Source of the DNA: Archangium sp.
Lineage (GTDB): Bacteria > Myxococcota > Myxococcia > Myxococcales > Myxococcaceae
NCBI GenBank assembly: GCA_047600485.1
Contig: JASGKS010000001.1
Coordinates: 6,976,259 to 7,040,258, forward strand
Reading direction: 5' to 3'
DNA length: 64,000 bases
The position numbers and the translations under genes are program-made. The notes beneath the pieces were generated by a model that was given only the letters and a program-made list of their open reading frames with translations, was not told where the DNA came from and ran no database searches. Every line of letters starts with the position of its first letter. Position 1 is the first letter of the stretch. Shown here in pieces: positions 29,001 to 43,463 of the stretch.

Positions 29001-29867
29001 CGTGAGCAGCAGAGCGGCCTCGAGTCCCTGCGGAGTGTTCGCCTGCTCGCCACAGCCAGCGGTGAAGACCACTGAGGTTGGGGGCGACGCGACGACGTTG
29101 AAGATCAGATCGAGCGGAACCACCGAACCACCACTCGCGGTCAGCAACACCTGCACCGAGGCTTCGCCCAACGTGGTCGGAGTCCACTGCAGCAGGCCCG
29201 TCGGACTGATGGTCATGCCAGCAGGCGCGGCGACCGCCAGACCCGAGCTCGCGATGGGAGCGAACGACAGACTCACCGTCTCGTTCGGAGGCGCGGTGAC
29301 CGGCAGGGAGATGCTGTTCGACTGGTTCTGCACCAGGCCCATTCGAAGCACCGCGGTGGTGCGCGCCGAACGCGGCGACGAGAGCAGCAACGCGCTGCGC
29401 ATCAGGAACGGGCGAGTCGAATTCCCATCTTGCAGTGGCGTGACACGACAGCAGTCGTTCACCTCGATGGGCGTCGAGCTCGCGGTGAGAGGAACCACCA
29501 CCTGCAGCGTCGCGTTGGCGTACAGGCGGTCATTGGCGGCGTCGGTGGCAACCACCTGGAGAGGAATGGTCTGCACCGTCGCGCCGCCGTTGATGCGGAG
29601 CGAGAAGTCGTTGATGAGCGCTCCGGGGTTCGCGTTGGCGCCAGCCGGCGTGTAGGTCGCGCTCCGCCGCAGGGCGAGCTGCACGTTCACGTTGAAGCGC
29701 GCCTGGGTCGACGAGACGAACGTCGTGTCACGCACCCAGTCGATGGTTCCGCCAGCGAAGCGGGTCGCCAGGGCAGGGCACGCGAAGAACAGCACGGCGA
29801 CCACGACCAGTCGAAGAGCGCGCACGGCGGCGCAGCCTAGCAAGGCGGTCGAGACGACGATGGCCAA
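26061..29867 (-). CDS. Large secreted protein: PA14/fibro-slime-like domain + 9 Myxococcus cysteine-rich repeats + Gly-rich linker + MYXO-CTERM-like tail
   Basis: Motif DDLWVFWNGKLLADLGGVHS (PA14/fibro-slime-like). Nine repeats RCGDG(F/I)xQxGEQCDDGNxxNxDxCxNAC. Then GGGSATGGGS repeats. The protein ends GCGCTAFDASVAWLALALLGVRRRRS (Cys motif + TM + basic tail). Confidence 0.7.
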   Translation of the reverse strand: MAIVVSTALLGCAAVRALRLVVVAVLFFACPALATRFAGGTIDWVRDTTFVSSTQARFNVNVQLALRRSATYTPAGANANPGALINDFSLRINGGATVQTIPLQVVATDAANDRLYANATLQVVVPLTASSTPIEVNDCCRVTPLQDGNSTRPFLMRSALLLSSPRSARTTAVLRMGLVQNQSNSISLPVTAPPNETVSLSFAPIASSGLAVAAPAGMTISPTGLLQWTPTTLGEASVQVLLTASGGSVVPLDLIFNVVASPPTSVVFTAGCGEQANTPQGLEAALLLTARSNRAGGDTLTLSNTPLPTGMVITPLSTNADAGWLVTWSPGRPVVNYGAPTFSTANFACFTVSGLSASSFGNCCATFAITPGPIRTVTGTFRDFRTTQADFSSANGDDVPAFVASTLGANNKPVFQPTTLTTVSSPSSFNAWWDDSPDAGATLVRPLDLVLSGNVSTTGVTRFTSSHFYPLDQRTPSAAEPNPNRNFTWELHEQMPWVPGTTLYFASADDLWVFWNGKLLADLGGVHSRQTLAVPLDAFAAANGLATGRNYPVDLFYAHRGLHEPEFQFELVDAIPPACSAPTRTIAPPQTLLGHATVLTDGGFELAAGPAYDAGPGAGLDGGFDGRLLPNAVFFNDRIDVSHDFQLDFTVLTSSTASGISVVLADALPLPVDSGVLGYENIPNSLAIEFDDVSSGGGDPIGGHVAVMTRGPLPNSANHAVAQRGWARVLRERYCAWPWWSACQSTFGTELAATTPIRITWTRDETRTGPAKGWLRTYIIVPGEPFYAPELEVELLQSEMESLFARGALLAVASGRFAGPTSAVVSNVSVRSSIPTAASMVLPPTPSTAILGQTVTVRMQSRGSCGEDVHASGFASLFGAIATDGTTTFGATIVDRNDGTYDVVYTPTSAGTWTATIVALNQGPIAGSPVSTLVTAMCLDGFRQGAEQCDDGNMVNDDGCTNACTLPRCGDGIRQTGEQCDDANSVNEDACTNACTLARCGDGFTQPPEACDDANTVNEDACTNVCALATCGDGFVQGTEPCDDGNTSNIDACTNACTVARCGDTFVQGTEQCDDGNGVNDDSCSNACNLRRCGDTILQSGEQCDDGNMVNNDDCSNACTTARCGDTIVQTGEQCDDGNMLNDDACSNACNLARCGDTIVQTGEQCDDGNQMSGDGCSATCASEAVVGGGGGSTGGGSATGGGSATGGGTATGGGSTMGGGTATGGGETGGGAGGGGSDVRPGCGCTAFDASVAWLALALLGVRRRRS

Positions 29868-30619: not shown

Positions 30620-31570
30620 TCAGCGCGTTCCGACCACCAGTTCCGCGATGGCGCGACTGATGCGGTGCCCGAGCTTCTGCTCGACGTCGAGGTAGATGGG
30701 CGAGCTGTTCAGCTCGAGGAACACGAAGCGCCCGTCAGTCGTGCGCTTGATGTCGATGCCCGCGAAGCGCAGTCCGCATTTCCTTGCGGCGTCTCGACAG
30801 TGTTGGACCACCGCGCTCGGCAGCTCGACTTCTTCGTAGCGCGCGTCACCCGACGAGTAGACGGGGTCGTCGCGAAAATCGAGGTGCTGCGACGGAGTGC
30901 GAATCGCGACGCACGAGACGATTTCGTCTCCCGCGAGCATCACGCGGAGATCGTCACCGTCGATGCGCTCTTGAAAGATGACCGGCGAATTGCGGACCGC
31001 GTCGAGCTCGTCGGCGCTCTCGAGGTCGGCGAGGCGACGGGTGATGGCTCCGCCCATGAGCGGCTTGAAGATGACGTCGTGCGTGTCCTTCGCGAATGCG
31101 CGCACCGCGTCGGGGTCGTTGCTGATCAACGTGCGGGGCACGCTCGCGCCGACGCTGCGCAGCACGTTGAGCTGAAACGGTTTGTACTGGAGCACGCTCC
31201 CGGCTTGCGGCGGGTTGATCAGCCGCGCGCCTCGGTCCTGCAACGCGAGGAGCCACGCGACGAAGTACGACGCGCGCTCGCGTTCCTGCATGTAGCGGAT
31301 GAACCAGTCTTCGTAGAGCACGAGCTCCTGGTCTTCTTCGCGTTCGAACGACGGCGCGTACGGAGCGGGGATGCTGCGCAGGTAGAAGCCGCGCACGTCG
31401 GTGAGGTCGACGCCGCGGTAGAGGAATTTGCCGTCGAGCTCGCTGAGCGGAAGACCTTCGTCGAGCGCGTCGCTGCGGATCAGCACGTCGTCTGCGCCGA
31501 GCGCGCGCACTTCCTTCGCCACGGCGTGGACCTGGAGATCATCGTCAGTGCCAAAGATGCCGACCCGCAT
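30620..31570 (-). CDS. ATP-grasp family peptide ligase (RimK-like; candidate graspetide macrocyclase)
   Basis: RimK/glutathione-synthetase-like ATP-grasp architecture (~320 aa); specific catalytic motifs were not confirmed from memory. Start taken at MRVGIFG. Divergent from the repeat-peptide gene. Confidence 0.75.
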   Translation of the reverse strand: MRVGIFGTDDDLQVHAVAKEVRALGADDVLIRSDALDEGLPLSELDGKFLYRGVDLTDVRGFYLRSIPAPYAPSFEREEDQELVLYEDWFIRYMQERERASYFVAWLLALQDRGARLINPPQAGSVLQYKPFQLNVLRSVGASVPRTLISNDPDAVRAFAKDTHDVIFKPLMGGAITRRLADLESADELDAVRNSPVIFQERIDGDDLRVMLAGDEIVSCVAIRTPSQHLDFRDDPVYSSGDARYEEVELPSAVVQHCRDAARKCGLRFAGIDIKRTTDGRFVFLELNSSPIYLDVEQKLGHRISRAIAELVVGTR

Positions 31571-31640
31571 GACGTGTTCGCGGGGCAAATGTACTCTGCG
31601 CGCGCGTCATTTCTCTCGTCGTCATCAAGGAGCGCTCCAC

Positions 31641-32177
31641 ATGAAGGTGAAGGGTCACAAGAGCCTGCCGAAGTACGAGCTCGGGAAGAACAAGAAGAAG
31701 GAAGAGAAGAAGATGACGACGATGGCGCTCGGCGAAGAGAGCGCGAAGAAGCCCGGCAAGCCGGGTCAGGTCACGACCAAAGCGCTCGGCGAAGAGGGCA
31801 ACGCGAAGCCGGGAAAGCCGGGCGGGACGTTCACCACGATGGCGGTTGGTGAGGAGAGCAACACCAAGCCGAAGCCTCCGGGCGGCACGTTCACCACGAT
31901 GGCGGTGGGTGAAGAGGGCGGTGCTCCGAACAAGCCCGGCAAGCCTCCGACGATGACCACGCTCGCGGTCGGTGAAGAGGGCGGTGCGCCGAACAAGCCG
32001 GGGAAGCCCGACGTCACGACGCTCGCCGTCGGTGAAGAGGGCAACGACAAGCCGACTAAACCCGGGAAGCCTGACGTCACGACGCTCGCCGTCGGTGAAG
32101 AAGGCAACAAGCCGAAGCCGCCGGGTGGAACGTTCACCACCATGGCGCTCGGTGAAGAGGGCACAGGCTCGCGCTGA
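31641..32177 (+). CDS. Graspetide (omega-ester-containing peptide) precursor with 8 tandem TTxxxGEE core repeats
   Basis: RBS-like aaggag 10 nt upstream of ATG 31641. Lys-rich leader MKVKGHKSLPKYELGKNKKKEEKK. Eight roughly 20-aa units (TTMALGEES, TTKALGEEG, TTMAVGEES, TTMAVGEEG, TTLAVGEEG x3, TTMALGEEG) separated by KPGKPG-type linkers. The ORF-track entry 31428..32177 is the same frame with an upstream false start. Confidence 0.65.
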   Translation: MKVKGHKSLPKYELGKNKKKEEKKMTTMALGEESAKKPGKPGQVTTKALGEEGNAKPGKPGGTFTTMAVGEESNTKPKPPGGTFTTMAVGEEGGAPNKPGKPPTMTTLAVGEEGGAPNKPGKPDVTTLAVGEEGNDKPTKPGKPDVTTLAVGEEGNKPKPPGGTFTTMALGEEGTGSR

Positions 32178-32191
32178 GCGGCGGTTTTGGT

Positions 32192-32232
32192 CCACCCTCA
32201 CCCCGACCCTCTCCCTCGCGGGAGAGGGGGCT
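32192..32232. repeat. Dispersed palindromic intergenic repeat, copy 1
   Basis: caccctcaccccgaccctctccctcgcgggagaggggg containing a 9-bp perfect stem (ccctctccc/gggagaggg) with a 4-nt loop. Same element at 42426..42466 and inverted at 35086..35123. Confidence 0.8.
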
Positions 32233-32273
32233 CTGAGCCGCGGCGCGTCTTCTGCGTTTCGTCTTCTGCGTTC

Positions 32274-33992
32274 TCAGAGCTTCAGCTTCTTCGTCGTCGT
32301 CTTGCCCGCGCTGATCTCGACTTCGATCGCGCGCTTGATGCCCTTGGCGTCGTTCACCAGCGTGAGCACGTGAATGCCCGGCGGCAACGTCACCTCGACC
32401 AGCGGCGTGTCGCCCAACTTGCGCCCCTTGAGAAACACCTCGGTGTATGGCGTCGTATCGAGCGTCAGCTTCCCCTTCGCGATCTTCACCGGAGTCTTCA
32501 CCGGCTGATCAGTCTTCGGCGGCTCGACGGGCTTCGGCGTCTCGGCAGCGAGCCCCGCATCGACCGCAGCAGTCGGCACAGGCGGCGGTTCCTTCACCGG
32601 CTCCTTCACGACCACCGGCGGAGGCACCACCTTCGCGATGACCGGTTCCTTCTTCGGCTCCTCGGACGACGGCAGATGCGTGACGAGGTACGCGACACCG
32701 ACCAGCAACACGATGCCGACACCCACCGCGATGGCCGCGCGCGCTTTTCTCTCGCGCTGCATGCGCGCGAGCGTCGGCTCTCCGACCTGCGTGGGAATTC
32801 CTTCGACCACGGGAATCGAACTTCCACTCGCGGTGACTTCCGGCGCGCCGAGCGGTGACGGCGCAGGAGCGAGCTCGGCCGCCGGCAACGTCGGGTGGCT
32901 GCGAATCGGCGAGAGGTGCTGCGGCAAGTGCTTCAACTGCGACGGCGTCTTCGCCGACGGCTCGAGCGAAATCTGCGCGATGCGCAATTTGCCCATGCGC
33001 CGGTCAGCGTCGAACAGCCCGTTCATGAACTCCGCGACCGCGCGCTCGCTGCGCACGTACTGCTGACTCACGAGAAACGACGCGAGCGCATCGGCGAGCT
33101 CAGCGGCGCTCTGGTAGCGCTGCTCCAAATCGCGCTCCATCGCCTTCAAGATGATGGCGTCGAGCGCCGGCGGCACCTGCGGCCGAATGCTGCTCGGCAC
33201 GGGAATCGGAGCGCTCACCACCGCCTTCAACGTCGCGAGGTCGCTCTCGCGCTTGAACGGCCGCTGCAGCGTCACCAACTCGTAGAGCACCGTGCCGAGC
33301 GCGAACACGTCGCTGCGGCGATCGAGCGGATCTCCCGCGGCCTGCTCGGGAGACACGTACGCGACCTTGCCCTTCAACGTGCCGGCCGCGGTCTTCGTGA
33401 TGTTCGACTCCGCGCGCGCGATGCCGAAGTCCACCAGCTTCACGGTGCCGTGGTACGTGACGATGACGTTCGACGGGCTCACGTCACGGTGCACGACGTT
33501 TTGGGGCCGGCCGTTCTGATCAGTCAGCTCGTGCGCGAAGTGCAGACCGGTCGCCGCTCCGACGATGACGTCGCACGCGGTGGCGATGGGCACCATGCGC
33601 TCGGCGCGCTTGCTCGCCTGCATGATGCTCGCGAGGTCCTCACCGGGGAGGTGCTCCATCGCGAGGTAGTACTGCCCGCCGACTTCGCCGAAGTCGTAGA
33701 TGCGCACCACGTTGTTGTGGTCGAGCGTCGCCGCGAGCCGCGCCTCGTCGAGGAACATCTGGACGAACTCGTCGTTGCTGCACAGCTCGGGGAGAATCAC
33801 CTTCAGCACGGCGGTCTTCTCGAAGCCGTGCGGCCCGCGCTGCACCGCGAGCCAGATCTGCGCCATGCCGCCCACCGCGATGCGGCGAATCAGCCGGTAC
33901 TTTCCGAACTCGATGGGCTGAAGCCCGTCGGCGCCAGGGGTCTGATCCACGCGGTCGGTGCGCAGCTTACTCCGCCACACAGAGCAGACCAC
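32274..33992 (-). CDS. Serine/threonine protein kinase with C-terminal PEGA domain
   Basis: GGMAQIWLA...VLK, HRDVSPSNVIV, DFGIARA, TM helix. C-terminal KLTLDTTPYTEVFLKGRKLGDTPLVEVTLPPGIHVLTLVND is PEGA-like. Paralog of 15740..17434. Confidence 0.9.
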   Translation of the reverse strand: MVCSVWRSKLRTDRVDQTPGADGLQPIEFGKYRLIRRIAVGGMAQIWLAVQRGPHGFEKTAVLKVILPELCSNDEFVQMFLDEARLAATLDHNNVVRIYDFGEVGGQYYLAMEHLPGEDLASIMQASKRAERMVPIATACDVIVGAATGLHFAHELTDQNGRPQNVVHRDVSPSNVIVTYHGTVKLVDFGIARAESNITKTAAGTLKGKVAYVSPEQAAGDPLDRRSDVFALGTVLYELVTLQRPFKRESDLATLKAVVSAPIPVPSSIRPQVPPALDAIILKAMERDLEQRYQSAAELADALASFLVSQQYVRSERAVAEFMNGLFDADRRMGKLRIAQISLEPSAKTPSQLKHLPQHLSPIRSHPTLPAAELAPAPSPLGAPEVTASGSSIPVVEGIPTQVGEPTLARMQRERKARAAIAVGVGIVLLVGVAYLVTHLPSSEEPKKEPVIAKVVPPPVVVKEPVKEPPPVPTAAVDAGLAAETPKPVEPPKTDQPVKTPVKIAKGKLTLDTTPYTEVFLKGRKLGDTPLVEVTLPPGIHVLTLVNDAKGIKRAIEVEISAGKTTTKKLKL

Positions 33993-34032
33993 TTCATGAA
34001 GCCGCGAAACTCAGCGCGAGTAGAGTCCGCGC

Positions 34033-35070
34033 ATGTCCCTCTTCGTCTGCGTAGTCGCCGCGACGTTGGCGGTGGCTCCTCCGGAGCTGAAGAACGCCGA
34101 AGGGTTGATGGCGAAATACAAATACGCCGAGGCGCAGGCGCAGCTGAAGAAGGCGCGCGCGGCGAAGGGTCTCGATCGCGCGAGCTTGCTGCGCATTCTC
34201 GAGCTGCAGGGCATCGCGGCGGGACAACAGCGACAAGCCGGGCCCGCGACGCAGGCGTTCAGCGAGCTGCTCACGCTCGACCCGGGTCACAAGCTCGCCG
34301 AGGAATTCGCGCCGCGCGTGATGACTCCGTTCTTCGAGGCCGGTCAGGCGGTCAACGAAGCGGGCGCGCTCGAGCTCAAAGCCGCGGCGGTCTCGGCGAG
34401 CAACGGTCGACTCACCGCGCTCAACGTCGAGGTGCCGAAGGACGCGCTGAAGCTCGTGCGCTCGTTGGTGTTCCACATCTCCATCAACGCGCCGTGGTCG
34501 ACGCGCACCGTTCCACTCGAGGGCGGCAAGGCGAGCACGCCGGTCGACGCGACCGAGGTGCAGTGGTGGGCGGAGCTGCTCGGAGAAAACGACGCGCAGT
34601 TGGTCGTGCTCGGGTCCGAGAGCAATCCACTGGTGGCGACGCCGCCGGCACCGATGGTGAGCGCGACTGCGCCGCCTCCGCTTCCGCCGTCAGCCGAACC
34701 GGTGGTGACGAAGAGCGCGAGCAGTGGTGGAGCGGTGCGCACGGCGTCGTTCTTCGTGATGGGTGGCGCGGTGGTGGCCGCGGGAGTCGGCGCGTTCTTC
34801 GGAGTGCGCTCGTCGACGGCGCTCGGTTCCATCACCGGAGCGACGCGAGATGATCAGGGCCGCATCACTTCGCTCACCGAACGCGAAGCCGCCGCGCGCG
34901 GTGCGCAGGCCGCGAGTGATGGGCTCATCGCGAACATCTTGTTCGTCAGCGCGGGAGTGGTGGCCGCGGCCGGCATCGTGATGTTCATCGTCGGCGGGCC
35001 GGAGACGCCCGCACGCGTGACGCTCGCTCCTGCGCTCGGTGGCTTCGCGCTGAGCGGGAGCTTTCCGTGA
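34033..35070 (+). CDS. Membrane-anchored periplasmic protein (paralog of 17437..18459)
   Basis: Signal peptide. RILELQGIAAGQ and QWWAELLGEN motifs shared with 17437..18459. C-terminal TM helix. Confidence 0.55.
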   Translation: MSLFVCVVAATLAVAPPELKNAEGLMAKYKYAEAQAQLKKARAAKGLDRASLLRILELQGIAAGQQRQAGPATQAFSELLTLDPGHKLAEEFAPRVMTPFFEAGQAVNEAGALELKAAAVSASNGRLTALNVEVPKDALKLVRSLVFHISINAPWSTRTVPLEGGKASTPVDATEVQWWAELLGENDAQLVVLGSESNPLVATPPAPMVSATAPPPLPPSAEPVVTKSASSGGAVRTASFFVMGGAVVAAGVGAFFGVRSSTALGSITGATRDDQGRITSLTEREAAARGAQAASDGLIANILFVSAGVVAAAGIVMFIVGGPETPARVTLAPALGGFALSGSFP

Positions 35071-37556
35071 GTGTGGTCGAAGGCAAAGCCCCCCTCTCCC
35101 GCCAGGGAGAGGGTCGGGGTGAGGGTGAACCGCACCACAATCTCAGCGCGCGATTCGTCGGAGGGGCGCGCAACACGTCGTGGCGCTCGCCGCTGCTCCT
35201 CGCGGCGTTCGTCTTCGCCGGCTGTCAGTGCACTCCGCCAGATCTCTCGCAGCAACGCTTCGCGTGCACGACGCTCGCCGATTGCGCCGATGGCCACGAC
35301 TGCATCGACGGCGAGTGTCGCAGTCCCTCGAGCAATGGAGACGGCGGAGCGACCGGAGGCGGCACAGCGACCGGAGGCGGCGCAGCGACCGGCGGCGGCG
35401 CAGCAACTGGTGGCGGCGCAGCGACGGGTGGTGGCGCAACGACTGGCGGCGGCGCTGCAACCGGAGGCGGCGGCGGCGCGACTGGCGGCGGATCCACAAC
35501 CGGTGGTGGCGGTGGTGCCACTGGTGGTGGCTCAACGACCGGAGGCGGCGGCTCGACCGGTGGCGGAGGCGGCACCTGCACTCCCGAAAGCGACCCCGAC
35601 TTCTGCACGCGACTCGCAAAGAACTGCGGCAGCGTGACGGCGAACGACAACTGCTCCGTCTCGCGCACCGCGACCTGCGGCACGTGCAACGGCGGAAACT
35701 TCTGCGGCGGCGGCGGCGCAGCGAACGTCTGCGGCCCCTGTCAGCCCGAGAACGACGTCGGCTTCTGCGGCCGCCTCGCGAAGAACTGCGGCCAGCTCAC
35801 CGCCAACGACAACTGCAACGTCCCGCGCACCGCGATGTGCGGCAGCTGTACTTCACCGCTCACCTGCGGCGGCAGCGTGACGCCGAACGTGTGCGGTGGC
35901 GGCCCCATCTGCACCGCCGACTGGTGTTGGAGCCGCCCGCAGATTCAAGGCAACCATCTGCACGACACCGCCGTCGTCTCAGCGACCGACGTGTGGGCCG
36001 TCGGAGACATCGGCACGATTCTCCACTGGGACGGCACGGCCTGGGGCAAGGCGCCGAACACCTTCGGCGATGATCTCTTCGCGGTCTGGGCCAACGGCAC
36101 GAGCAACGCGTGGGCGGCCGGGCGTGACGGCACCATCCTCCACTGGAATGGAAACGACTGGTCTCCGCTCGGAAACCTCGCCACCAACCAGACCATCTTC
36201 GGCCTGTGGGGCAGCTCGACGAACGACGTGTGGGCCGCGGGCACTGGCGGCGTGCTCCGCCGGTGGAACGGCTCGACGTGGGTCGCGGCGACGAGCAACA
36301 CCGCCAACACCTTCTACGGCCTCGGTGGCTCAGCGACGAACGACGTGTGGGCCGTCGGCGAAGGCGGAATGATTCAGCACTTCAACGGCACCGCGTGGAG
36401 CAACGTCACGAGCCCCACCACCAACGAGCTCGACGGCGTGTGGGCGAGCAGCACGACCAACGCGTGGGCCGTCGGTGACAACGTCATCCTGCGGTGGAAC
36501 GGCACGATGTGGACCGACGTGACGCCGACCACGTCGACTGGGTTCTTCGGCGTGTGGGGCACCGGACCCAACGACGTGTGGGCCGTCGGCGATCGCCTCA
36601 CGATGCGCTTCAACGGCACGTCGTGGAACGCAGTGGGCACTCCGGTCGCGAGTGAGTGGCACGGCGTGCACGGCGCGGGCAGCGAAGTGTTCGCGGTCGG
36701 AATCGGCGGAGCGACGATGCGGTGGACCGGAATGGCGTGGACCGAGCTCACCGCGGGTCCGTTCGAGACGCTCTACGGCCTGTTCGCGTTCTCGACGACC
36801 GACGTTTGGGCTTCAGGCTCGCGCGGAACGATTCTGCACTTCGACGGCACGACGTGGACACGCTCCAACTCCGGTACGACGAACGACCTCAACGCGCTGT
36901 GGGGCTCGGCGCCGAACAACATCTGGGTCGCGGGCGACAACGTGATGAAGCGGTGGAACGGAACGTCGTGGACCACCCAACCCGCTCCGCCGCGGCAGAT
37001 CTACGACCTGCACGGACTCTCGGCGAACGACATCTGGGCGTCGGGCGTCGACGGTTTGATGATGCACTACAACGGCACGAGCTGGTCGGTGGTGAACACC
37101 GGCATGTCGACCACCAACGACTACAACACCGTGTGGGCCCTCGCCGCGAACGACGTCTGGGCGCTCGGTGACAACGGGCTCGCGGGCCACTGGGACGGCA
37201 TGAACTGGAGCGTGGTGGCGCCGTTCATCACCACCAATTCCGTCTACGCGATGTCGGGCAACGCGGGCACGCTCATCGGCGTCGGCCCGGGCGCGACCAT
37301 CGTGAAATTCTCGGGAGGCACGTGGACCGACGTGTCCGTCGGCGGCAGCGATTACTACGGCGTCACGATGGTCACTCCGAGTGAGAGCTACATCGTCGGT
37401 GGCGGCGTCTCGATGCGCTACGACACCGTCTCTCCGCAGCAATACCTCGACCTGCCGAACTACTACGGGTTCTACAACATCGCCGCCATTGCACAGCCCA
37501 GCGGCCCCGTGCTCTTCACCGTCGGCACCGCAGGCGGGGTCCTGCAACACAACTGA
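35067..37556 (+). CDS. Lipoprotein with (ATGGG)n Gly-rich linker, duplicated Cys-rich module and beta-propeller-like W-x-G repeats
   Basis: Lipobox FVFAGCQ. GGATGGGTATGGGAATGGG... repeats. Two copies of C...DFCTRLAKNCG..TANDNC.V.RTA.CG.C. At least 15 repeats of type GTILHWDGTAW / VWAVG / LRWNGTMW. The true start is uncertain because the repeat element lies in the 5' region. Confidence 0.6.
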   Translation: MSVVEGKAPLSRQGEGRGEGEPHHNLSARFVGGARNTSWRSPLLLAAFVFAGCQCTPPDLSQQRFACTTLADCADGHDCIDGECRSPSSNGDGGATGGGTATGGGAATGGGAATGGGAATGGGATTGGGAATGGGGGATGGGSTTGGGGGATGGGSTTGGGGSTGGGGGTCTPESDPDFCTRLAKNCGSVTANDNCSVSRTATCGTCNGGNFCGGGGAANVCGPCQPENDVGFCGRLAKNCGQLTANDNCNVPRTAMCGSCTSPLTCGGSVTPNVCGGGPICTADWCWSRPQIQGNHLHDTAVVSATDVWAVGDIGTILHWDGTAWGKAPNTFGDDLFAVWANGTSNAWAAGRDGTILHWNGNDWSPLGNLATNQTIFGLWGSSTNDVWAAGTGGVLRRWNGSTWVAATSNTANTFYGLGGSATNDVWAVGEGGMIQHFNGTAWSNVTSPTTNELDGVWASSTTNAWAVGDNVILRWNGTMWTDVTPTTSTGFFGVWGTGPNDVWAVGDRLTMRFNGTSWNAVGTPVASEWHGVHGAGSEVFAVGIGGATMRWTGMAWTELTAGPFETLYGLFAFSTTDVWASGSRGTILHFDGTTWTRSNSGTTNDLNALWGSAPNNIWVAGDNVMKRWNGTSWTTQPAPPRQIYDLHGLSANDIWASGVDGLMMHYNGTSWSVVNTGMSTTNDYNTVWALAANDVWALGDNGLAGHWDGMNWSVVAPFITTNSVYAMSGNAGTLIGVGPGATIVKFSGGTWTDVSVGGSDYYGVTMVTPSESYIVGGGVSMRYDTVSPQQYLDLPNYYGFYNIAAIAQPSGPVLFTVGTAGGVLQHN
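35086..35123. repeat. Dispersed palindromic repeat, copy 2 (inverted orientation)
   Basis: cccctctcccgccagggagagggtcggggtgagggtg is the reverse complement of the 32192 element, with one substitution in the loop. Confidence 0.8.
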
Positions 37557-37619
37557 CTTCGTAACGTTTTCTCTCCTCGGCAATCAGGCGTCGGGGACGT
37601 TAGGTCCCGCTCCGTACCC

Positions 37620-38687
37620 ATGGCATCCGCTCCCGTCATCGCTTCCGTCGCTCGCGCGCTCCCGCCGCACTACCACTCGCAGGCAGAGCTCTCGCAGGGC
37701 CTTCAGGACTACTGGCGCGAAGGCGGCCACCACTTCAACAAGAGCCGCGTCGATTCGTTGCACGCCTCGGTGCAGGTGCGCGGGCGGCACCTCGCGATTC
37801 CGATGGCCGACTACCCGCCGCTCAACACCTTCGAGAAGCGAAACCAGGTGTGGATTCGCGAGGCGGTGAAGCTCGGTGAACAGGCCGTGCGCGACGCGGT
37901 GAAGAAGGCCGGGCTCTCGCTGCAAGACATCGACGCGTTGTGCTTCACGAGCATCACCGGTCTCGCGACGCCGAGCATCGACGCGCGATTGGTGAACAAG
38001 CTCGGGCTGCGCAACGACGTGAAGCGGCTTCCGATTTTCGGACTCGGCTGCGTCGCGGGAGTGGCTGGCACCGCGCGCGTGAGCGACATGCTGCGCGGTT
38101 TTCCCGGGCACAACGCGGTGCTGCTCTCGGTCGAACTGTGCAGCCTCACCGTGCAGCGCGATGACCTCTCGCTCTCGAACATCATCGCGTCGGGGCTGTT
38201 CGGCGACGGCGCTTCGGCAGTCGTGGTGCGCGGAGGCGACGCTCCCGGCGATGGACCGCGCGTGCTCGCGAGCGAATCGGTCTTCTACCCAGACACCGAA
38301 GACGTGATGGGTTGGGACTTTCTCGATTCGGGTTTCAAGGTCGTGCTCTCGGCGCGCGTGCCGGAGATGGTGCTCACCAACGTGCGCAACAACGTCGACG
38401 GTTTCTTGAGCAAGCACGGCGTGAAGCGCAGCGACATCAAGCACTGGGTCGCGCACACCGGCGGGCCGAAGGTGCTCGAGGCGTTCGAGCAGGCACTCGA
38501 GCTTCCACCCGACGCGCTCGCGCGAAGCTGGGAGTCGCTGCGCTCGGTCGGAAATCTCTCGTCGTCGTCGGTGCTCTACGTGCTCGGTGACCTGCTCGAC
38601 TCGGGCGTCGCGAAGAAGGGCGACGTCGGCCTGATGATGGCGATGGGCCCGGGCTTCTGCTCGGAGCTGGTGCTGCTGAAATGGTGA
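37620..38687 (+). CDS. Type III polyketide synthase (chalcone/stilbene synthase family)
   Basis: Catalytic Cys in FGLGCVAGVAG, His in WVAHTGGPKVL, Asn in VGNLSSSSVLYVL. Length 355 aa. Confidence 0.9.
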   Translation: MASAPVIASVARALPPHYHSQAELSQGLQDYWREGGHHFNKSRVDSLHASVQVRGRHLAIPMADYPPLNTFEKRNQVWIREAVKLGEQAVRDAVKKAGLSLQDIDALCFTSITGLATPSIDARLVNKLGLRNDVKRLPIFGLGCVAGVAGTARVSDMLRGFPGHNAVLLSVELCSLTVQRDDLSLSNIIASGLFGDGASAVVVRGGDAPGDGPRVLASESVFYPDTEDVMGWDFLDSGFKVVLSARVPEMVLTNVRNNVDGFLSKHGVKRSDIKHWVAHTGGPKVLEAFEQALELPPDALARSWESLRSVGNLSSSSVLYVLGDLLDSGVAKKGDVGLMMAMGPGFCSELVLLKW

Positions 38688-39208
38688 ACTCGCTCTGGCT
38701 CTACACGGCGCTCATCGCGCTGGTGGGCGTGGAGCGGCTCGTCGAACTTCGACTCTCGGTGCGCAACGCGAAGTGGGCGTTCGAGCGCGGCGCGAAAGAG
38801 TACGGTCAGGGCCACTACCCGTTCATGACCGTGTTCCACACCGCGTTCCTCGTGGCGTGCGTGGCGGAGCCGTGGCTCTTCGACCGGCCCTTCGTTTCGC
38901 CGTGGGGCTTCCTCGCGCTCGCGTTCGCCGTCGGCGCGCAGCTGTTGCGGTACTGGGCCATCACCACGCTCGGCACGCGGTGGAACACGCGCGTCATCGT
39001 GCTGCCGAAGGGAGAGCAGTTGGTGAGCGGCGGGCCGTACCAATTCGTGCGGCACCCGAACTACGTCGCGGTGTGCGTCGAGCTGCTGGCGTTGCCGCTC
39101 ATTCACGGAGCGTTCGTGACCGCGGTGGTCTTCACGATTGGAAATGCGCTGCTCTTGCGCGTGCGCATCAAGGTCGAGGAGACGGCGCTCGGTCTGCGCG
39201 CGGAGTAG
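38681..39208 (+). CDS. Isoprenylcysteine carboxyl methyltransferase (ICMT)-family membrane methyltransferase
   Basis: Multi-TM protein with C-terminal GGPYQFVRHPNYVAVCVELLALPL motif typical of the ICMT/PEMT family. Overlaps the PKS stop by 7 nt. Confidence 0.8.
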   Translation: MVNSLWLYTALIALVGVERLVELRLSVRNAKWAFERGAKEYGQGHYPFMTVFHTAFLVACVAEPWLFDRPFVSPWGFLALAFAVGAQLLRYWAITTLGTRWNTRVIVLPKGEQLVSGGPYQFVRHPNYVAVCVELLALPLIHGAFVTAVVFTIGNALLLRVRIKVEETALGLRAE

Positions 39209-39210
39209 GA

Positions 39211-39671
39211 CGTGGCGCATGGCGATTCTCTTCCGTGCGGCGGTGCGAGCTGACCTTCCTGCGATGTTGGCGCTGCTGGCTGACGACACGCTGGGCACCA
39301 AGCGCGAGGTGAGCAGCGAGGACCCGCGCTACCTCGCCGCGTGGGAAGCGGTGACCACCGACGCGAATCAACACCTGCTCGTCGCCGAGCTCGACGGCGC
39401 GGTGGTGGGCATGATGCAGATGACGCGCACGCCCGGCCTCTCTCGCGCAGGAGCGTGGCGCGCGACGCTCGAATCGGTGCGCATTCGCAGCGACCTCCGC
39501 GGGCGTGGGTACGGCGGGCAGTTCATCGAGTACGCGATTGAGTTGGCGCGCACCCTCGGGTGCCGGTTGGTGCAGCTCACCAGCGACGTGCGACGCGAAG
39601 AAGCGCATCGGTTCTACGGGCGACTCGGCTTCGTCGCGTCGCACACCGGCTTCAAGCTCGAGCTCAAGTGA
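39211..39671 (+). CDS. GNAT family N-acetyltransferase
   Basis: RIRSDLRGRGYGGQFIEYAIELAR acetyl-CoA binding motif (R/Q-x-x-G-x-G/A). Start taken at MAILFRAAV (39211) rather than the ORF-track 39138. Confidence 0.75.
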
Positions 39672-40762
39672 GAGTCGACGTCGCCATCGTCGGAGCGGGT
39701 CCCGCCGGCCTCGCCACGGCCATCGGCGCTGCGACGCGCGGGCTGACGGTGCACGTGTTCGACAAGCAGGGCTTTCCCATCGACAAGGCGTGCGGTGAAG
39801 GGCTGATGCCGTCGGGCTTGTCGGCGCTCGAGCGGCTCGGCGCGCTGAAGTTTCTCGACCGTGCTGATTCGGCGGAGTTCCACTCCATTACCTATGTGCA
39901 GGAGAGCGGCGTGCGCGCGGTGGGCACGTTGCCCGCTCCCGGTGGGCTCGGCGTGCGTCGCCTCGCGCTGTCCGCAGCGTTGCGCGCGCGCGCGGTCGAA
40001 GCCGGAGTCGTGCTGCACGAGAAGACCGGCGTGCGCACACATCGCCACGTCATCGACGGCGTCGAGCTCGAGACGGAGAGTGAAGTCGTGCACGCGCAGG
40101 TGCTCATCGCGGCCGACGGGTTGAACTCGCTGTGCCGGCAACGCGAAGGGCTCGCTGGGCCGGTGGCGAAACATCGGCGGTTCGGTGTGCGGCGGCATCT
40201 GCGCGTGAAGCCGTGGGCCGCGACGGTCGAGGTGCATTTCGCGGAAGGCGTCGAGGCGTACGTCACTCCCGCGGGCGTCGAGCGCGTGGGCGTCGCGTTT
40301 CTGTGGGACGCGTCGAGCGCGGTGAGTGAAGAGAGCGGCTTCGATGCGCTGCTCGCGCGTTTCCCCGAGCTCGCTGAGCGCGTGCGCGGAGCTGACTTCG
40401 ATTCGTCGTCGCGCGGCGCGGGCCCGTTGATGCAGCACGTGCAGCGGCGCGTCGCACCGCGGTTCGCGCTGGTGGGAGATGCCGCCGGCTACGTCGATGC
40501 CATCACCGGTGAAGGGCTGACGCAGGCGTTCGACGCGTCGGAAGCGCTGGTCAGTGTGTTGCCCGAAGTCATCGCGGCGCGCGGAGCGGTGGAAGCGTTC
40601 GGTGCGTACGAGCGCGCGGCCGAGAAGTCTTTCGTCAGGTACGCGCGGCTCGCGAACTCGCTGCTGTGGCTCGCGCGACGTCCCCAGTTGCGGAAGTTCG
40701 TCGTCGCGTCGCTGGCGAAGAGCCCTGCCCTGTTCGAGCGAGTCCTCGCGTCGGCGCTGTAG
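39668..40762 (+). CDS. FAD-dependent oxidoreductase/monooxygenase (geranylgeranyl-reductase-like family)
   Basis: GTGA overlap with the GNAT stop. N-terminal dinucleotide-binding motif VDVAIVGAGPAGLATA...VHVFDK. GD motif LVGDAAGYVDAITGEG. Confidence 0.8.
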   Translation: MRVDVAIVGAGPAGLATAIGAATRGLTVHVFDKQGFPIDKACGEGLMPSGLSALERLGALKFLDRADSAEFHSITYVQESGVRAVGTLPAPGGLGVRRLALSAALRARAVEAGVVLHEKTGVRTHRHVIDGVELETESEVVHAQVLIAADGLNSLCRQREGLAGPVAKHRRFGVRRHLRVKPWAATVEVHFAEGVEAYVTPAGVERVGVAFLWDASSAVSEESGFDALLARFPELAERVRGADFDSSSRGAGPLMQHVQRRVAPRFALVGDAAGYVDAITGEGLTQAFDASEALVSVLPEVIAARGAVEAFGAYERAAEKSFVRYARLANSLLWLARRPQLRKFVVASLAKSPALFERVLASAL

Positions 40763-40865
40763 TTTTCTGCTCGGAAATTCGCGCCGAAATTGCGGCGATT
40801 CTGTGCGTGGCGTTTACAGCCTGAGGCCGATTCTCAAACGCTGCGAAAGCCGACCATGCGGGACC

Positions 40866-42392
40866 ATGAGCATTCGTGTGGCTTCTCCGTTGGTGCCGAC
40901 GCTGCCTCCTCCCACGCCGTTGCCGGTTCCGACCGCGGGACAGGTGAAGCGCGCTGAGACGCAGTTGAAGAAGCTCGGATACAGCCCGGGCGCAGTCGAC
41001 GGTCGCCCCACCGCGGCGTTCTCGTCGGCGCTCAAGGAATTCCAGGCGGCGTGGGGTTTGTCTGCGACCGGCACGCTCGACGACGCGACGCGCTCGAAGC
41101 TCGACCACACCGCGGAGCGGCAGCACGACGCGAAGGGCAAGTCGGTCTCGGTCGGCGAGAAGTCGAAGAGCATTCTGAAGATGGAGCAGCTGCTGGCGCG
41201 GCTCGGTTACCGCGTCGGAAAGCGCGACGGTGTCTACTCGCGCGAGACCGCGGAGGCGGTGAAGGCGTTCCGCGCTGATCAGAAGGAACTGAAGGACGGC
41301 TTCGGCTCGATGAGCACCGGCGCGCAGAAGGTGCTGCAGCGCGAGGCGAGCTCGCTGTCGCATGCTCCGGAGCGTCGCCGCGTGAAGGCCACCGCCGCGC
41401 AGACGCAGCTCGATCGCGCCACGCTGAACGCGACGCGCGCGGGCATCAAGGAAGGTGACCACTCGCGCGTCGTCGCCAACGTGCAGCAGCACTTGCGCGC
41501 GGCGGGCTTCGACCCCAAGCGCGTGACCGGCACGTTCGATGAGCGCACCGCGGGCGCGCTCAAGGCGTTCCAGCGTCGCAGCAAGCTCGAGCCGACCGGC
41601 GTGGTCGACGCGAAGACCTGGCGCGCGCTGCGCAACGCGCGGATGGAAGCGACCTCGGGCACCAGCCCCGCGCAGCGGCTCAACGAGCGCAGCGGCGCGG
41701 TGAAGGCGAGCGAGAAGCTGCTCAAGAAGCTCGGCTTCAACCCCGGGAAGATCGACGGGCTGTTCGACAAGCGCACCGAGAAGGCCGTGCGTGCGTTCGA
41801 GCGCCGCGAGCACCTCAAGGTCGACGGAGCCATCACCACCGGCGAGCTGTCGAAGATGAAGAAGCTGTCGAAGGGCGTCACGCTCGGACAGCTGCACGCC
41901 ATCATGCCGTCGCTGCCGATGTCGAAGGCGCGGGCGTATTTGCCGCTGCTCAACCGCGCGATGGCCGAGGCGCACATCAACACCAAGTCGCGCAAGGCGA
42001 TGTTCCTCGCGCAGCTCGCGCACGAGAGCGTGCAGCTGCGGTTCTTCGAGGAGATTGCGTCGGGCGCGGCGTACGAGGGCCGGCGAGATCTGGGCAACAC
42101 GCACCCGGGTGATGGCGTTCGGTACAAGGGGCGCGGGCCGATTCAGCTGACTGGTCGCGCGAACTACCGCGCGGCGGGGAAGGCGCTGCACCTGCCGCTC
42201 GAGGCGCAGCCGAAGATGGCGGCGCGCCCGTCGGTCGGGTTCCGCACGGCGGCGTGGTTCTGGACGAGCCACGGACTCAACGCGCTTGCGGACCGTGGTG
42301 ACTTCATCGGCGTCACGCGGCGCATCAACGGCGGTACCAACGGGCTGTCGTCGCGGCAGGCGTACTACCGCAAGGCGCTGCGGGTTCTCTGA
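40866..42392 (+). CDS. Putative peptidoglycan hydrolase: 5 PG-binding (PG_binding_1) repeats + C-terminal GH19 chitinase/lysozyme-like domain
   Basis: Repeats of LKKLGYSPGAVDG....T..A(L/V)KAFQ. C-terminal ...AQLAHES..L...EE.....YEGRRDLGNT.PGDG.RYKGRGPIQLTGRANY, the GH19 signature. Start at ATG 40866; the ORF-track 40554 start adds an Arg/Ser-rich non-coding-like extension. Confidence 0.75.
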   Translation: MSIRVASPLVPTLPPPTPLPVPTAGQVKRAETQLKKLGYSPGAVDGRPTAAFSSALKEFQAAWGLSATGTLDDATRSKLDHTAERQHDAKGKSVSVGEKSKSILKMEQLLARLGYRVGKRDGVYSRETAEAVKAFRADQKELKDGFGSMSTGAQKVLQREASSLSHAPERRRVKATAAQTQLDRATLNATRAGIKEGDHSRVVANVQQHLRAAGFDPKRVTGTFDERTAGALKAFQRRSKLEPTGVVDAKTWRALRNARMEATSGTSPAQRLNERSGAVKASEKLLKKLGFNPGKIDGLFDKRTEKAVRAFERREHLKVDGAITTGELSKMKKLSKGVTLGQLHAIMPSLPMSKARAYLPLLNRAMAEAHINTKSRKAMFLAQLAHESVQLRFFEEIASGAAYEGRRDLGNTHPGDGVRYKGRGPIQLTGRANYRAAGKALHLPLEAQPKMAARPSVGFRTAAWFWTSHGLNALADRGDFIGVTRRINGGTNGLSSRQAYYRKALRVL

Positions 42393-42425
42393 GGCTCGTA
42401 GAACGTAAGTAAAAGCTTACTTTTG

Positions 42426-42466
42426 GTTCACCCTCACCCCGACCCTCTCCCTCGCGGGAGAGGGGG
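42426..42466. repeat. Dispersed palindromic intergenic repeat, copy 3
   Basis: caccctcaccccgaccctctccctcgcgggagaggggg between convergent genes. Preceded by the AT-rich palindrome gtaagtaaaagcttac. Confidence 0.8.
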
Positions 42467-42512: not shown

Positions 42513-43463
42513 TCACTCCAGGAATGCGTCGAGCCGCGCGATGCGATCTCCGTCGAGCGTCAGCACGTGGAGCGCTGCCTTCACGCCATCGCGGAACATC
42601 GTCAGCGCCGGCTGACCGTTCGCCGTCGTGAGCTCGACGCGGAACGAGCCCGCGCTGCCAGGCACCAGCACCATGCCGGCCAGCGACGCTCCGATGTTCG
42701 CCGCGCCGCGGAACCACACCGGCATCGGCGGCATGGTGAGCACCGCGTCTTCTTTCAGCAACTGCACGAGCAGCCCGACGTCGCTGCGTTCCCACGCGGT
42801 GATGTAGCGAGCCAGCAGCGAACGCGTCGTCTCGTCATCAGCCGCCGGAGCACGCACCGCGCGATTCTCTTCGAGCGTCGCCCTCGCCCGCTGCAGCGCC
42901 GAGTTCACCGCCGCGACCGACAGCTCGAGCAGCTCGGCGCACTCGCTCGCCTGCCACCCGAGCACGTCGCGCAACAACAACACCGCGCGCTGTCTCGGCG
43001 GCAACCGCTGCAACGCCGTCAGGAACGCCAGCGACACGCTCTGCCGCCGCGAGTAGCGCGCTTCGGGTGACGCTTCTTCGGGCTCAATCCACTCGTCGGG
43101 GCACGGCTGCAGCCACGGCACCTCGACGTCGGGCGCCATCGACGACAGCACGGCCGCGCTCGGCTCACCCGGCCCGCTCAAGTCACTCGGCAGCACGCGA
43201 TTCTTCTTCGCTTCGAGCGCGTTGAGGCACGCTGACGTCGCCACGCGATACAGCCAGCCGCGCAAGCTCGAACGACCCTCGAAACCACCGAGGCCCTTCC
43301 ACGCCTTCACCAGCGAGTCCTGCAGCAGGTCTTCGGCGTCGTGCGTCGAGCCGCTCATCCGATAGCAGTGCGCTCGCAGCTCCCGGCGAAACGGAGCGAC
43401 CAGTTGCTCGAACGCCTTCGCATTTCCCGCGCGCGCCGAGGCGAGAAGTTGTTCGGAACTCAT
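42513..43463 (-). CDS. ECF-type RNA polymerase sigma factor with C-terminal SnoaL-like extension (ECF41-like)
   Basis: Sigma-2 region DAEDLLQDSLVKAWKGLGGFEG. Sigma-4 region RQRAVLLLRDVLGWQASECAELLELSVAAVNSALQRAR. An extra roughly 110-aa C-terminal domain. Confidence 0.8.
   Translation of the reverse strand: MSSEQLLASARAGNAKAFEQLVAPFRRELRAHCYRMSGSTHDAEDLLQDSLVKAWKGLGGFEGRSSLRGWLYRVATSACLNALEAKKNRVLPSDLSGPGEPSAAVLSSMAPDVEVPWLQPCPDEWIEPEEASPEARYSRRQSVSLAFLTALQRLPPRQRAVLLLRDVLGWQASECAELLELSVAAVNSALQRARATLEENRAVRAPAADDETTRSLLARYITAWERSDVGLLVQLLKEDAVLTMPPMPVWFRGAANIGASLAGMVLVPGSAGSFRVELTTANGQPALTMFRDGVKAALHVLTLDGDRIARLDAFLE

Follow-up and report, generated by a model that had tools for sequence, protein, structure and literature searches.

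Among the short repeats described in Escherichia coli, one hairpin-forming element has been given three names: it was called BoxC earlier, PIT (potential intrastrand triplex) later, and TM-ECO most recently (Bachellier et al. in the 1990s; Hoyne and Maher 2000, 2002; Holder et al. 2015, PMC4666352). TM-ECO is defined as 5'-CCCTCNCCC N3-6 GGGNGAGGG N3 GGGNGAGGG-3', and 3610 copies have been counted in 262 proteobacterial genomes, with very uneven numbers from strain to strain; Myxococcus xanthus contributed a single copy to that survey. The 23 copies listed for E. coli K-12 were described as always intergenic, no functional class was recognized among their neighbours, and no link to transposons, phages or plasmids was found (PMC4666352). 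TM loci are known to be hyper-variable between E. coli strains. Here, we describe three copies of this three-block element, abbreviated TM in the following, in a 64,000-nt stretch of DNA from a metagenome-assembled genome (MAG) of Archangium sp. (Myxococcota). This stretch at its full length is called the window, and the copies are named A, B and C. It was a full-text literature search with the stem sequences that led to the paper of Holder et al. (PMC4666352).

An exact and fuzzy search of the window with the 38-mer CACCCTCACCCCGACCCTCTCCCTCGCGGGAGAGGGGG located copy A at positions 32193-32230 and copy C at positions 42429-42466, both on the + strand and without mismatch, and copy B at positions 35090-35127 on the - strand with one mismatch, which changes the loop TCGC to TGGC. 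The three copies span only 10.3 kb, and the fuzzy search revealed no additional or degenerate copies within the 64 kb. A chance origin is ruled out, as 100 dinucleotide-preserving shuffles gave an expectation of 0 matches compared with the three observed. The original prediction, which was made from the sequence alone, had announced a dispersed, hairpin-forming repeat of three copies differing by one loop substitution, with a perfect 9-bp stem and a 4-nt loop. These statements were borne out at coordinates shifted by 1-4 nt, and the stem CCCTCTCCC/GGGAGAGGG is perfect in all three copies. What had been overlooked is that the motif has three blocks, the tail CACCCTCACCCC being the third 9-nt block and not flanking sequence. 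On the G-rich strand, each copy has the form CCCTCTCCC-GCGA-GGGAGAGGG-TCG-GGGTGAGGG (with GCCA as loop 1 in copy B), i.e. a pyrimidine block (Y, CCCTCTCCC), its Watson-Crick purine partner (R1, GGGAGAGGG) and a second purine block (R2, GGGTGAGGG), which mirrors the purine arm of the hairpin. The three-block cores occupy positions 32195..32228 (copy A, - strand), 35092..35125 (copy B, + strand) and 42431..42464 (copy C, - strand); copy C equals copy A including both loops. All three cores match the TM-ECO pattern exactly, and copies nos. 12 and 20 in the E. coli K-12 list have identical blocks together with the TCG second loop (PMC4666352). Judged by this agreement of sequence, the identification of the window repeats with the BoxC/PIT/TM-ECO element is secure. 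Rfam contains no family that matches at gathering thresholds, and an E-value search returned only chance hairpin matches with E >= 0.6. The GC content of the window is 65-69% throughout, and five of the six reading frames are open through the element: a stop occurs in one of the three frames of the G-rich strand and in none of the three C-rich ones. The two look-alike open reading frames (ORFs) with TTG starts (32187.. and 42423..), which had been noted, exist in the window; both start in the repeats and are spurious.

The arrangement of the blocks fits a triple helix. In a class II purine-motif triplex, the third strand runs antiparallel to the purine strand, and G*G, A*A or T*A is required throughout; in mirror register, the third block is compatible with this rule at 9 of 9 positions. 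For E. coli sequences with the same blocks, an intrastrand triplex of this class has been demonstrated for the G-rich strand in vitro by circular dichroism and nuclear magnetic resonance (NMR), with melting temperatures (Tm) of 70-82 °C. Published NMR data for the full element, again with E. coli sequences, indicate a triplex and not a G-quadruplex (G4), and the element arrests DNA polymerase in vitro. A constraint on triple-helix geometry predicts that the three blocks covary in mirror register, and among about 2.1 Mb examined we found variants in which all three had changed together in this manner: CCTTCTCCC/GGGAGAAGG/GGATGAGGG, CCCTCCCCC/GGGGGAGGG/GGGTGGGGG and CCCCCTCCC/GGGAGGGGG/GGGGGTGGG. 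A further variant with three covarying blocks, CCCTCTCCTC/GAGGAGAGGG/GGGTGAGGAG, occurs in the relative L284; this sample is small and some of the variant copies may share descent.

Such a structure might also act as a regulatory switch, with a G-rich strand that alternates between hairpin, G-quadruplex and triplex, or as a protein-binding site, and thereby control replication, recombination or the expression of neighbouring genes. The string GGGAGAGGGTCGGGGTGAGGG has the four G tracts of a canonical G4 motif, the loops drift from phylum to phylum whereas the blocks stay the same, positions are kept in relatives, and the polymerase arrest mentioned above would suit this role. We nevertheless consider a switch improbable, because NMR gave a triplex for the full element, the energy predicted for the RNA G4 (-12.6 kcal/mol) falls short of that of the hairpin (-18.9 kcal/mol), no functional class was recognized among the neighbouring genes in E. 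coli (PMC4666352), in vivo footprinting with dimethyl sulfate (DMS) detected no structure, and no binding protein is known. For the RNA hairpins of the three copies, -18 to -19 kcal/mol were predicted on either strand.

The sequences around the cores give hints on how the copies arose. According to alignment and repeat analysis, the common unit comprises 42 nt (GGTyCACCC...GGGGG). Copies A and C additionally share TTTTGGT at the 5' side, and copies A and B have about 20 further nucleotides in common including CGCGCTGAG, which gives a repeat pair of 61 nt with 84% identity. The extended homology of copy A (32170..32230, + strand) thus consists of the 42-nt unit at 32189-32230 and a left flank with CGCGCTGAG, which contains the TGA stop codon (32175-32177) of a preceding ORF. 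That the A/B and the A/C pair share different extra flanks argues for imprecise copying together with a few flanking bases.

Copy B is located near the start of a lipoprotein-like ORF (35067..37556, + strand; lipobox FAGC near 35217-35228), whose GTG codon at 35067 is overlapped by the TGA stop of a 345-aa ORF without Pfam domain (34033..35070, + strand). A search for homologues of the lipoprotein was swamped by GGxT low complexity (<= 39% identity), and an M20 peptidase and the 345-aa ORF were used instead. With the latter as synteny anchor, loci were found in six lineages, at 90, 73, 72, 60, 60/58 and 54% protein identity. The alignment of these loci shows that a segment of about 105 nt or 35 codons (35071..35175, + strand; ends approximate by a few nucleotides), which carries copy B, is absent from all six related lineages. 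Based on this comparison, the insertion with copy B is specific to the lineage of the window, and it shows no clean target-site duplication.

In every relative, the start of the lipoprotein gene overlaps or adjoins the stop codon of the preceding gene (as ATGA, GTGA or TAG-ATG), and the gene encodes a signal peptide of 15-23 aa. The insertion preserves the frame of the ancestral GTGA-coupled GTG, which is preceded by GGGAG 6 nt upstream. Copy B lies in codons 8-22 of ORF 35067-37556, encoding the peptide PLSRQGEGRGEGEP, and sits between the signal peptide and the sole canonical start codon of this ORF; no other in-frame ATG, GTG or TTG is found ahead of its lipobox. It had been proposed that copy B makes the start codon call doubtful. 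The scrutiny was warranted, but since the insertion keeps the frame of the GTG and no alternative canonical start exists, translation is likelier than assumed there. Going by the sequence, we think that copy B is probably translated. We estimate the chance that an in-frame open insert arises without selection as rather small. Within the insertion, a strong Shine-Dalgarno-like GGAGGGG (35160-35166) was observed 8 nt upstream of an ACG codon (35175), at the place where the relatives have their ATG or GTG start. This ACG may serve as a non-canonical start, it may be a start that was lost by mutation and is rescued by the in-frame GTG further upstream, or it may stem from a wrong base in the MAG.

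A comparable pair of filled and empty sites exists in E. coli. In strain K-12, a TM is found 13 nt past the ilvC stop codon, adjoining a separate terminator hairpin, and the ilvC-ppiC region contains 50 nt with the TM in K-12 versus 9 unrelated nucleotides in O157 and other strains. We looked for a target-site duplication at ilvC-ppiC and found none. A miniature inverted-repeat transposable element was therefore rejected: filled versus empty sites at ilvC-ppiC and at site B show replacement or insertion without clean duplication, and the combination of terminal inverted repeats and a target-site duplication was not found.

Repetitive extragenic palindromic (REP) elements are characterized by a conserved GTAG-type tetranucleotide head beside an imperfect palindrome. 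The original prediction had labelled the window repeat as REP-like and had suggested a link to REP-associated tyrosine transposases (RAYTs). Like REP elements and the bacterial interspersed mosaic elements (BIME), the window element is short, palindromic, dispersed, hairpin-forming and mostly situated outside genes, and a role as stabiliser of mRNA 3' ends is plausible for it. However, the 42-nt unit holds no GTAG or CTAC, consists of three blocks rather than of a simple imperfect palindrome, and has the sequence of E. coli BoxC, for which catalogues have an entry apart from REP/BIME. Moreover, a Pfam scan of the ORFs called in the first 56 kb of the window detected no transposase, Y1 (Y1_Tnp) or RAYT domain, and Holder et al. 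(2015, PMC4666352) reported no association with transposons, phages or plasmids. Membership in the REP/RAYT group was rejected on the grounds of the missing GTAG head, the three-block architecture and the exact BoxC match, and a REP-type element moved by a RAYT (IS200/IS605-like Y1) transposase is very improbable.

Copy B is not the only TM within a coding region. Alignment of Sphingomonas ileS (L086) to PDB chain 8c9e showed that residues 414 and 418 are separated by an insert of about 46 aa, encoding PSPLRGEGRGEGQ... plus its inverted partner, i.e. an inverted TM pair. In a Nitrospiraceae HsdR (L102) the element lies directly ahead of the DEAH box, and in Dyella LpdA (L105) and a Sphingomonas E2 protein (L065) it occurs in linkers of lipoyl domains. 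Where the G-rich strand of a copy within an ORF is the sense strand, the frame ..P(L/S)P..GEGRGEG.. is used in 16 of 23 cases; copy B has this frame as well. A full-text literature search for 'GEGRGEG' and for TM copies within genes gave no match. As the in-frame copies in ileS, hsdR, lpdA and E2 are found in both orientations, RNA polymerase has to read through the core, which speaks against the core alone being an efficient terminator. TM cores in frame in bona fide genes, adding GEGRGEG-type peptides, were also observed in L098 and L274.

In order to define the distribution of the element, a genome collection was scanned with the pattern CCCTCTCCC N3-6 GGGAGAGGGTCGGGGTGAGGG. The TM core was found in at least 119 genome stretches. 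Among the matches listed are alpha-, beta-, gamma- and zeta-Pseudomonadota, Myxococcota including Archangium minus and several MAGs, as well as Desulfobacterota, Acidobacteriota, Planctomycetota, Verrucomicrobiota, Chloroflexota, Nitrospirota, Binatia and others; one MAG each is assigned to Bacillota and Bifidobacteriaceae, where mis-binning is possible in single cases. The breadth of the TM core reaches well beyond the proteobacterial report of 2015. In addition, the core was detected in at least 120 metagenome stretches and in 35 viral-contig stretches (IMG/VR). The family-specific 42-mer had 0 matches in the metagenome scan, and a looser scan gave many unrelated lineages and no close relative of the window subfamily among the matches listed. 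Across genomes, loop 1 varies strongly (3-6 nt), whereas copies A and C have both loops in common. Pyrimidines usually predominate in the 5' flank, and at many loci a second, inverted copy is found at a distance of 30-60 nt. Nine metagenome contigs with a GC content of about 50% (L173, L206, L224, L238, L242, L257, L194, L205 and L258) contain a longer conserved repeat around the core, GGGGAGGGGGAT...GAAATTTCTTGATTCTT-[TM]-GTATTCTTGACTTTTTACGATTTCATCAA, which suggests lineage-specific composite elements built on the TM core.

The genomic context was determined for 196 non-redundant copies by means of a home-made ORF caller, which is crude, so that the resulting fractions are only indicative. 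Copies are located between co-directional genes in 86 of 196 cases, between convergent genes in 49, between divergent genes in 26, and deep within long ORFs in 35. Copies lie at a median distance of 36 nt from a stop codon. With respect to the upstream gene, neither strand is preferred: the C-rich strand is in sense in 69 cases and the G-rich strand in 66.

Copies A and C of the window are intergenic, each between convergent genes, as had been stated. The 42-nt unit of copy A begins 11 nt downstream of the stop codon of a repeat-peptide ORF (31638..32177, + strand; 7 repeats TTMA(L/V)GEEG) and faces, at a distance of 43 nt, the 3' end of a Ser/Thr protein kinase gene (32274..33992, - strand). 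That of copy C begins 32 nt downstream of a GH19-like ORF with four PG_binding_1 domains (40554..42392, + strand) and faces, at a distance of 46 nt, the 3' end of a gene for an extracytoplasmic function (ECF) sigma factor with a SnoaL_2 domain (42513..43463, - strand). For copy B, the corresponding distance to the stop codon of ORF 34033-35070 is 19 nt. Between the stop codon of the GH19-like ORF and copy C, there is an AT-rich hairpin followed by TTTT (GTAAGT-AAAA-GCTTAC, then TTTTGG; 42406..42428, + strand), directly 5' of the element; its palindrome at 42406-42421 had been recognized before. It looks like a weak intrinsic terminator of the upstream + strand gene, and a scan for GC-stem terminators did not flag it.

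The same sites are occupied in some of the relatives. The kinase gene is followed at its 3' end (site A) by a TM of the same orientation and with the same blocks in the window, in L291 (73% identity of the anchor protein) and in L284 (60%), where the loops are TCGC, GAAG and CACG, respectively. The flanks are unrelated, and the distance to the stop codon is 43 nt in the window, 17 nt in L291 and 1 nt in L284, which has a second, inverted TM there as well. L282 (72%) lacks a TM at site A and has a canonical hairpin plus T-run terminator instead; L287 (54%) has neither TM nor terminator. At site C, the orthologous ECF sigma factor gene of L284 is followed at its 3' end by a pair of inverted TMs. 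No TM was found in L294, which was identified via the M20 peptidase and whose sequence ends about 1.3 kb before site C. Presence or absence of the TM thus differs between close relatives. In L284, a Myxococcaceae MAG (STL-MYX2), about 5 tandem copies of a unit of roughly 94 nt (gtgtgacgtttgcggcggtgggcgccggggacgtcacgcggatggggcttcttcgtgc...) were observed directly upstream of a TM (2150-2600). The 3' untranslated region (UTR) before copy C (42393-42424, TGAGGCTCGTAGAACGTAAGTAA...) is similar to that behind the precursor gene at site A of L282 (185-215, TAAGGCTCGTGAACAAGTAAC...); this likeness may be a trace of a TM that was copied between sites together with its flank.

These positions suggest that the element could be a functional 3'-end element of the host, i.e. 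a bidirectional terminator or an mRNA stabiliser or insulator between convergent genes, which is selected at sites A and C; the roles of terminator and stabiliser had been proposed originally. All three copies begin 11-32 nt past a stop codon, with A and C between convergent genes, position and orientation are kept at the kinase and sigma factor 3' ends in relatives of 60-73% identity, L282 has a terminator at the place of the TM, and a simple terminator scan flags copy C on the + and copy B on the - strand. Copies between divergent genes are under-represented (26 of the 161 intergenic ones), and in Enterobacter sp. 638 the same hairpins were noticed at gene 3' ends (PMC2869309). Several observations speak against termination itself. 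PIT elements in E. coli are reported to have no promoter or terminator activity and not to affect RNA polymerase. A T-rich tail exists only at copy C (+) and weakly at copy B (-); there is no T-run at copy A or at the copies of the relatives, and the hairpin of the G-rich transcripts, none of which has such a tail, is followed by UCGGGGUGAGGG. The in-frame copies imply read-through in both orientations, a separate terminator-like hairpin stands beside the TM at E. coli ilvC-ppiC as well as at site C of the window, and the region contains 11 terminator-like sites versus 9.5 in shuffles, which is no excess. The evidence on a bidirectional terminator is mixed: the scan results and the shared 3'-end sites speak for it, and the missing T-run of copy A speaks against it. 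A stabilising role without termination is compatible with all of these counterarguments. We regard a host-functional terminator or stabiliser as unlikely on balance; it keeps some weight since the recurrence at sites A and C is incompletely explained otherwise.

The interpretation that we favour, and hold to be reasonably probable, is that of a structure-forming and spreading BoxC/PIT/TM-ECO repeat, which is tolerated at gene ends and possibly forms a 3' hairpin in RNA, and which is no efficient terminator. A unit of about 34-42 nt would spread within and between genomes by imprecise copying, dragging flanking bases along, and it would be gained and lost on short time scales, as site B, the E. 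coli strains and the insertions within genes suggest. The lack of a target-site duplication together with the dragged flanks points to recombination, repair or template switching and not to a transposase. The element would persist where it does little harm, i.e. shortly behind stop codons, in the spacers between genes, and in frame within protein regions that are permissive. At sites A and C, the strong hairpin probably acts as a 3'-end stem-loop that is able to stabilise transcripts and is not an efficient terminator on its own.

Several points weigh against a spreading and merely tolerated repeat. Sites A and C hold a TM in the same orientation in relatives of 60-73% identity despite unrelated flanks; a neutral or selfish element is expected to decay, so that this recurrence calls for a local function, a strong insertion hotspot or homogenisation. 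The terminator that replaces the TM at site A of L282 hints at functional equivalence. In vivo DMS footprinting in E. coli detected no triplex. Finally, the context statistics rest on the crude ORF caller, which assigned the wrong strand at 31.7 and 39.6 kb of the window.

A bolder version, which we consider rather doubtful, sees the element as self-propagating DNA distributed across the bacteria, with the triplex motif as its core and with a spread that proceeds via the structure itself and needs no element-encoded transposase. The propagation could be driven, for example, by fold-back priming, by template switching where forks have stalled, or by a repair enzyme with a housekeeping role. The element would colonise gene 3' ends, where it displaces or mimics terminators, and its in-frame entry into essential genes would add GEGRGEG-type peptides. 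Covariation of the three blocks in mirror register would then reflect selection on the propagation mechanism.

Two ORFs of the window agree at 100% identity with proteins of an NCBI MAG labelled Archangium sp. (locus tag QM817_31815). The gene content of the window is typical of myxobacteria, with several Ser/Thr kinases, an ECF sigma factor, a DUF4215 protein and a type III polyketide synthase. The ORF at about 31638-32177 (+ strand), which ends ahead of copy A, encodes a Lys-rich leader followed by 7 repeats T(F/V)TT(M/L)A(L/V)GEEG with KPGKP linkers. Head-to-head with it lies an ATP-grasp ORF (30620-31588, - strand), which matches RimK and GSH-S_ATP. Judged by these features, the two look like the precursor and the ligase of a multi-core graspetide (omega-ester peptide); a homologue of the precursor gene is present in L282. 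Between copies B and C, a mini-cluster (37620-40762) comprises genes for a type III polyketide synthase, an ICMT-like methyltransferase and an FAD monooxygenase. It is kept in L282 and L284, the latter having an extra GNAT gene and lacking the GH19-like gene. (GGxxT)n low-complexity linkers occur in several secreted proteins and lipoproteins at 20.1, 21.6, 26.2, 35.3 and 55.2 kb, and they generate many long direct and inverted DNA repeats in the window. Tandem repeats of 93 nt were found at 26266-27123 within the DUF4215 protein gene (26061-29867) and at 346-703.

The kind of element described here is known already. New are its occurrence in a Myxococcota MAG and the in-frame copy in a lipoprotein gene, and likewise the presence of the TM far outside the Proteobacteria and in frame in essential genes, the positional recurrence in relatives and the three-way covariation. 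For the annotation of the window this means that the palindromes should be labelled as BoxC/TM-ECO-type repeats, and that about 35 lineage-specific codons are inserted in the N-terminal part of the lipoprotein gene. BoxC has been on record since the 1990s without an accepted function or mechanism of propagation, and the comparisons supply testable leads: the exact core exists well outside the Proteobacteria, in-frame copies in essential genes speak against efficient termination, the same gene 3' ends are occupied in diverged relatives while the surroundings change, and the blocks covary in the register predicted for a triplex.

With respect to elements inserted into proteins, the palindromic elements of Rickettsia, said to have been described by Ogata and co-workers in 2000, reportedly measure 100-150 nt, lie in frame within protein genes and are confined to that genus. 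They resemble the copies in the lipoprotein gene, ileS, hsdR and lpdA as short structured repeats that are tolerated as extra peptide segments. In contrast, the TM core has 34 nt and an unrelated sequence, and it occurs in many phyla. H-DNA or mirror-repeat motifs and G-quadruplex motifs are similar in that the purine blocks of the window element are mirror repeats and contain four G3 tracts; unlike in those motifs, all three partners are on one strand and belong to a specific conserved family instead of a low-complexity tract. The genome of Enterobacter sp. 638 contains about 100 CCCTCTCCCXX(X)GGGAGAGGG hairpins at gene 3' ends, for which a terminator role was presumed (PMC2869309). They agree with the window element in hairpin core and location, but were described as hairpins only, with loops of 2-3 nt, and their third block was not remarked upon. 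Compared with BoxC/PIT/TM-ECO of E. coli, the window element differs in its Myxococcota MAG host, in loop 1 (GCGA or GCCA), in the location of copy B within a coding region, where the E. coli copies are described as always intergenic, and in the occurrence of three single copies in 10 kb; inverted pairs, which are frequent among E. coli BoxC copies, are seen in the relative L284 and not in the window. The three 9-nt blocks are identical, the triplex architecture is the same, and the copies are dispersed and lie mostly between genes. The E. coli K-12 copy at ilvC-ppiC is a counterpart of copies A and C, as it follows a stop codon, lies between convergent genes and has the C-rich strand in sense.

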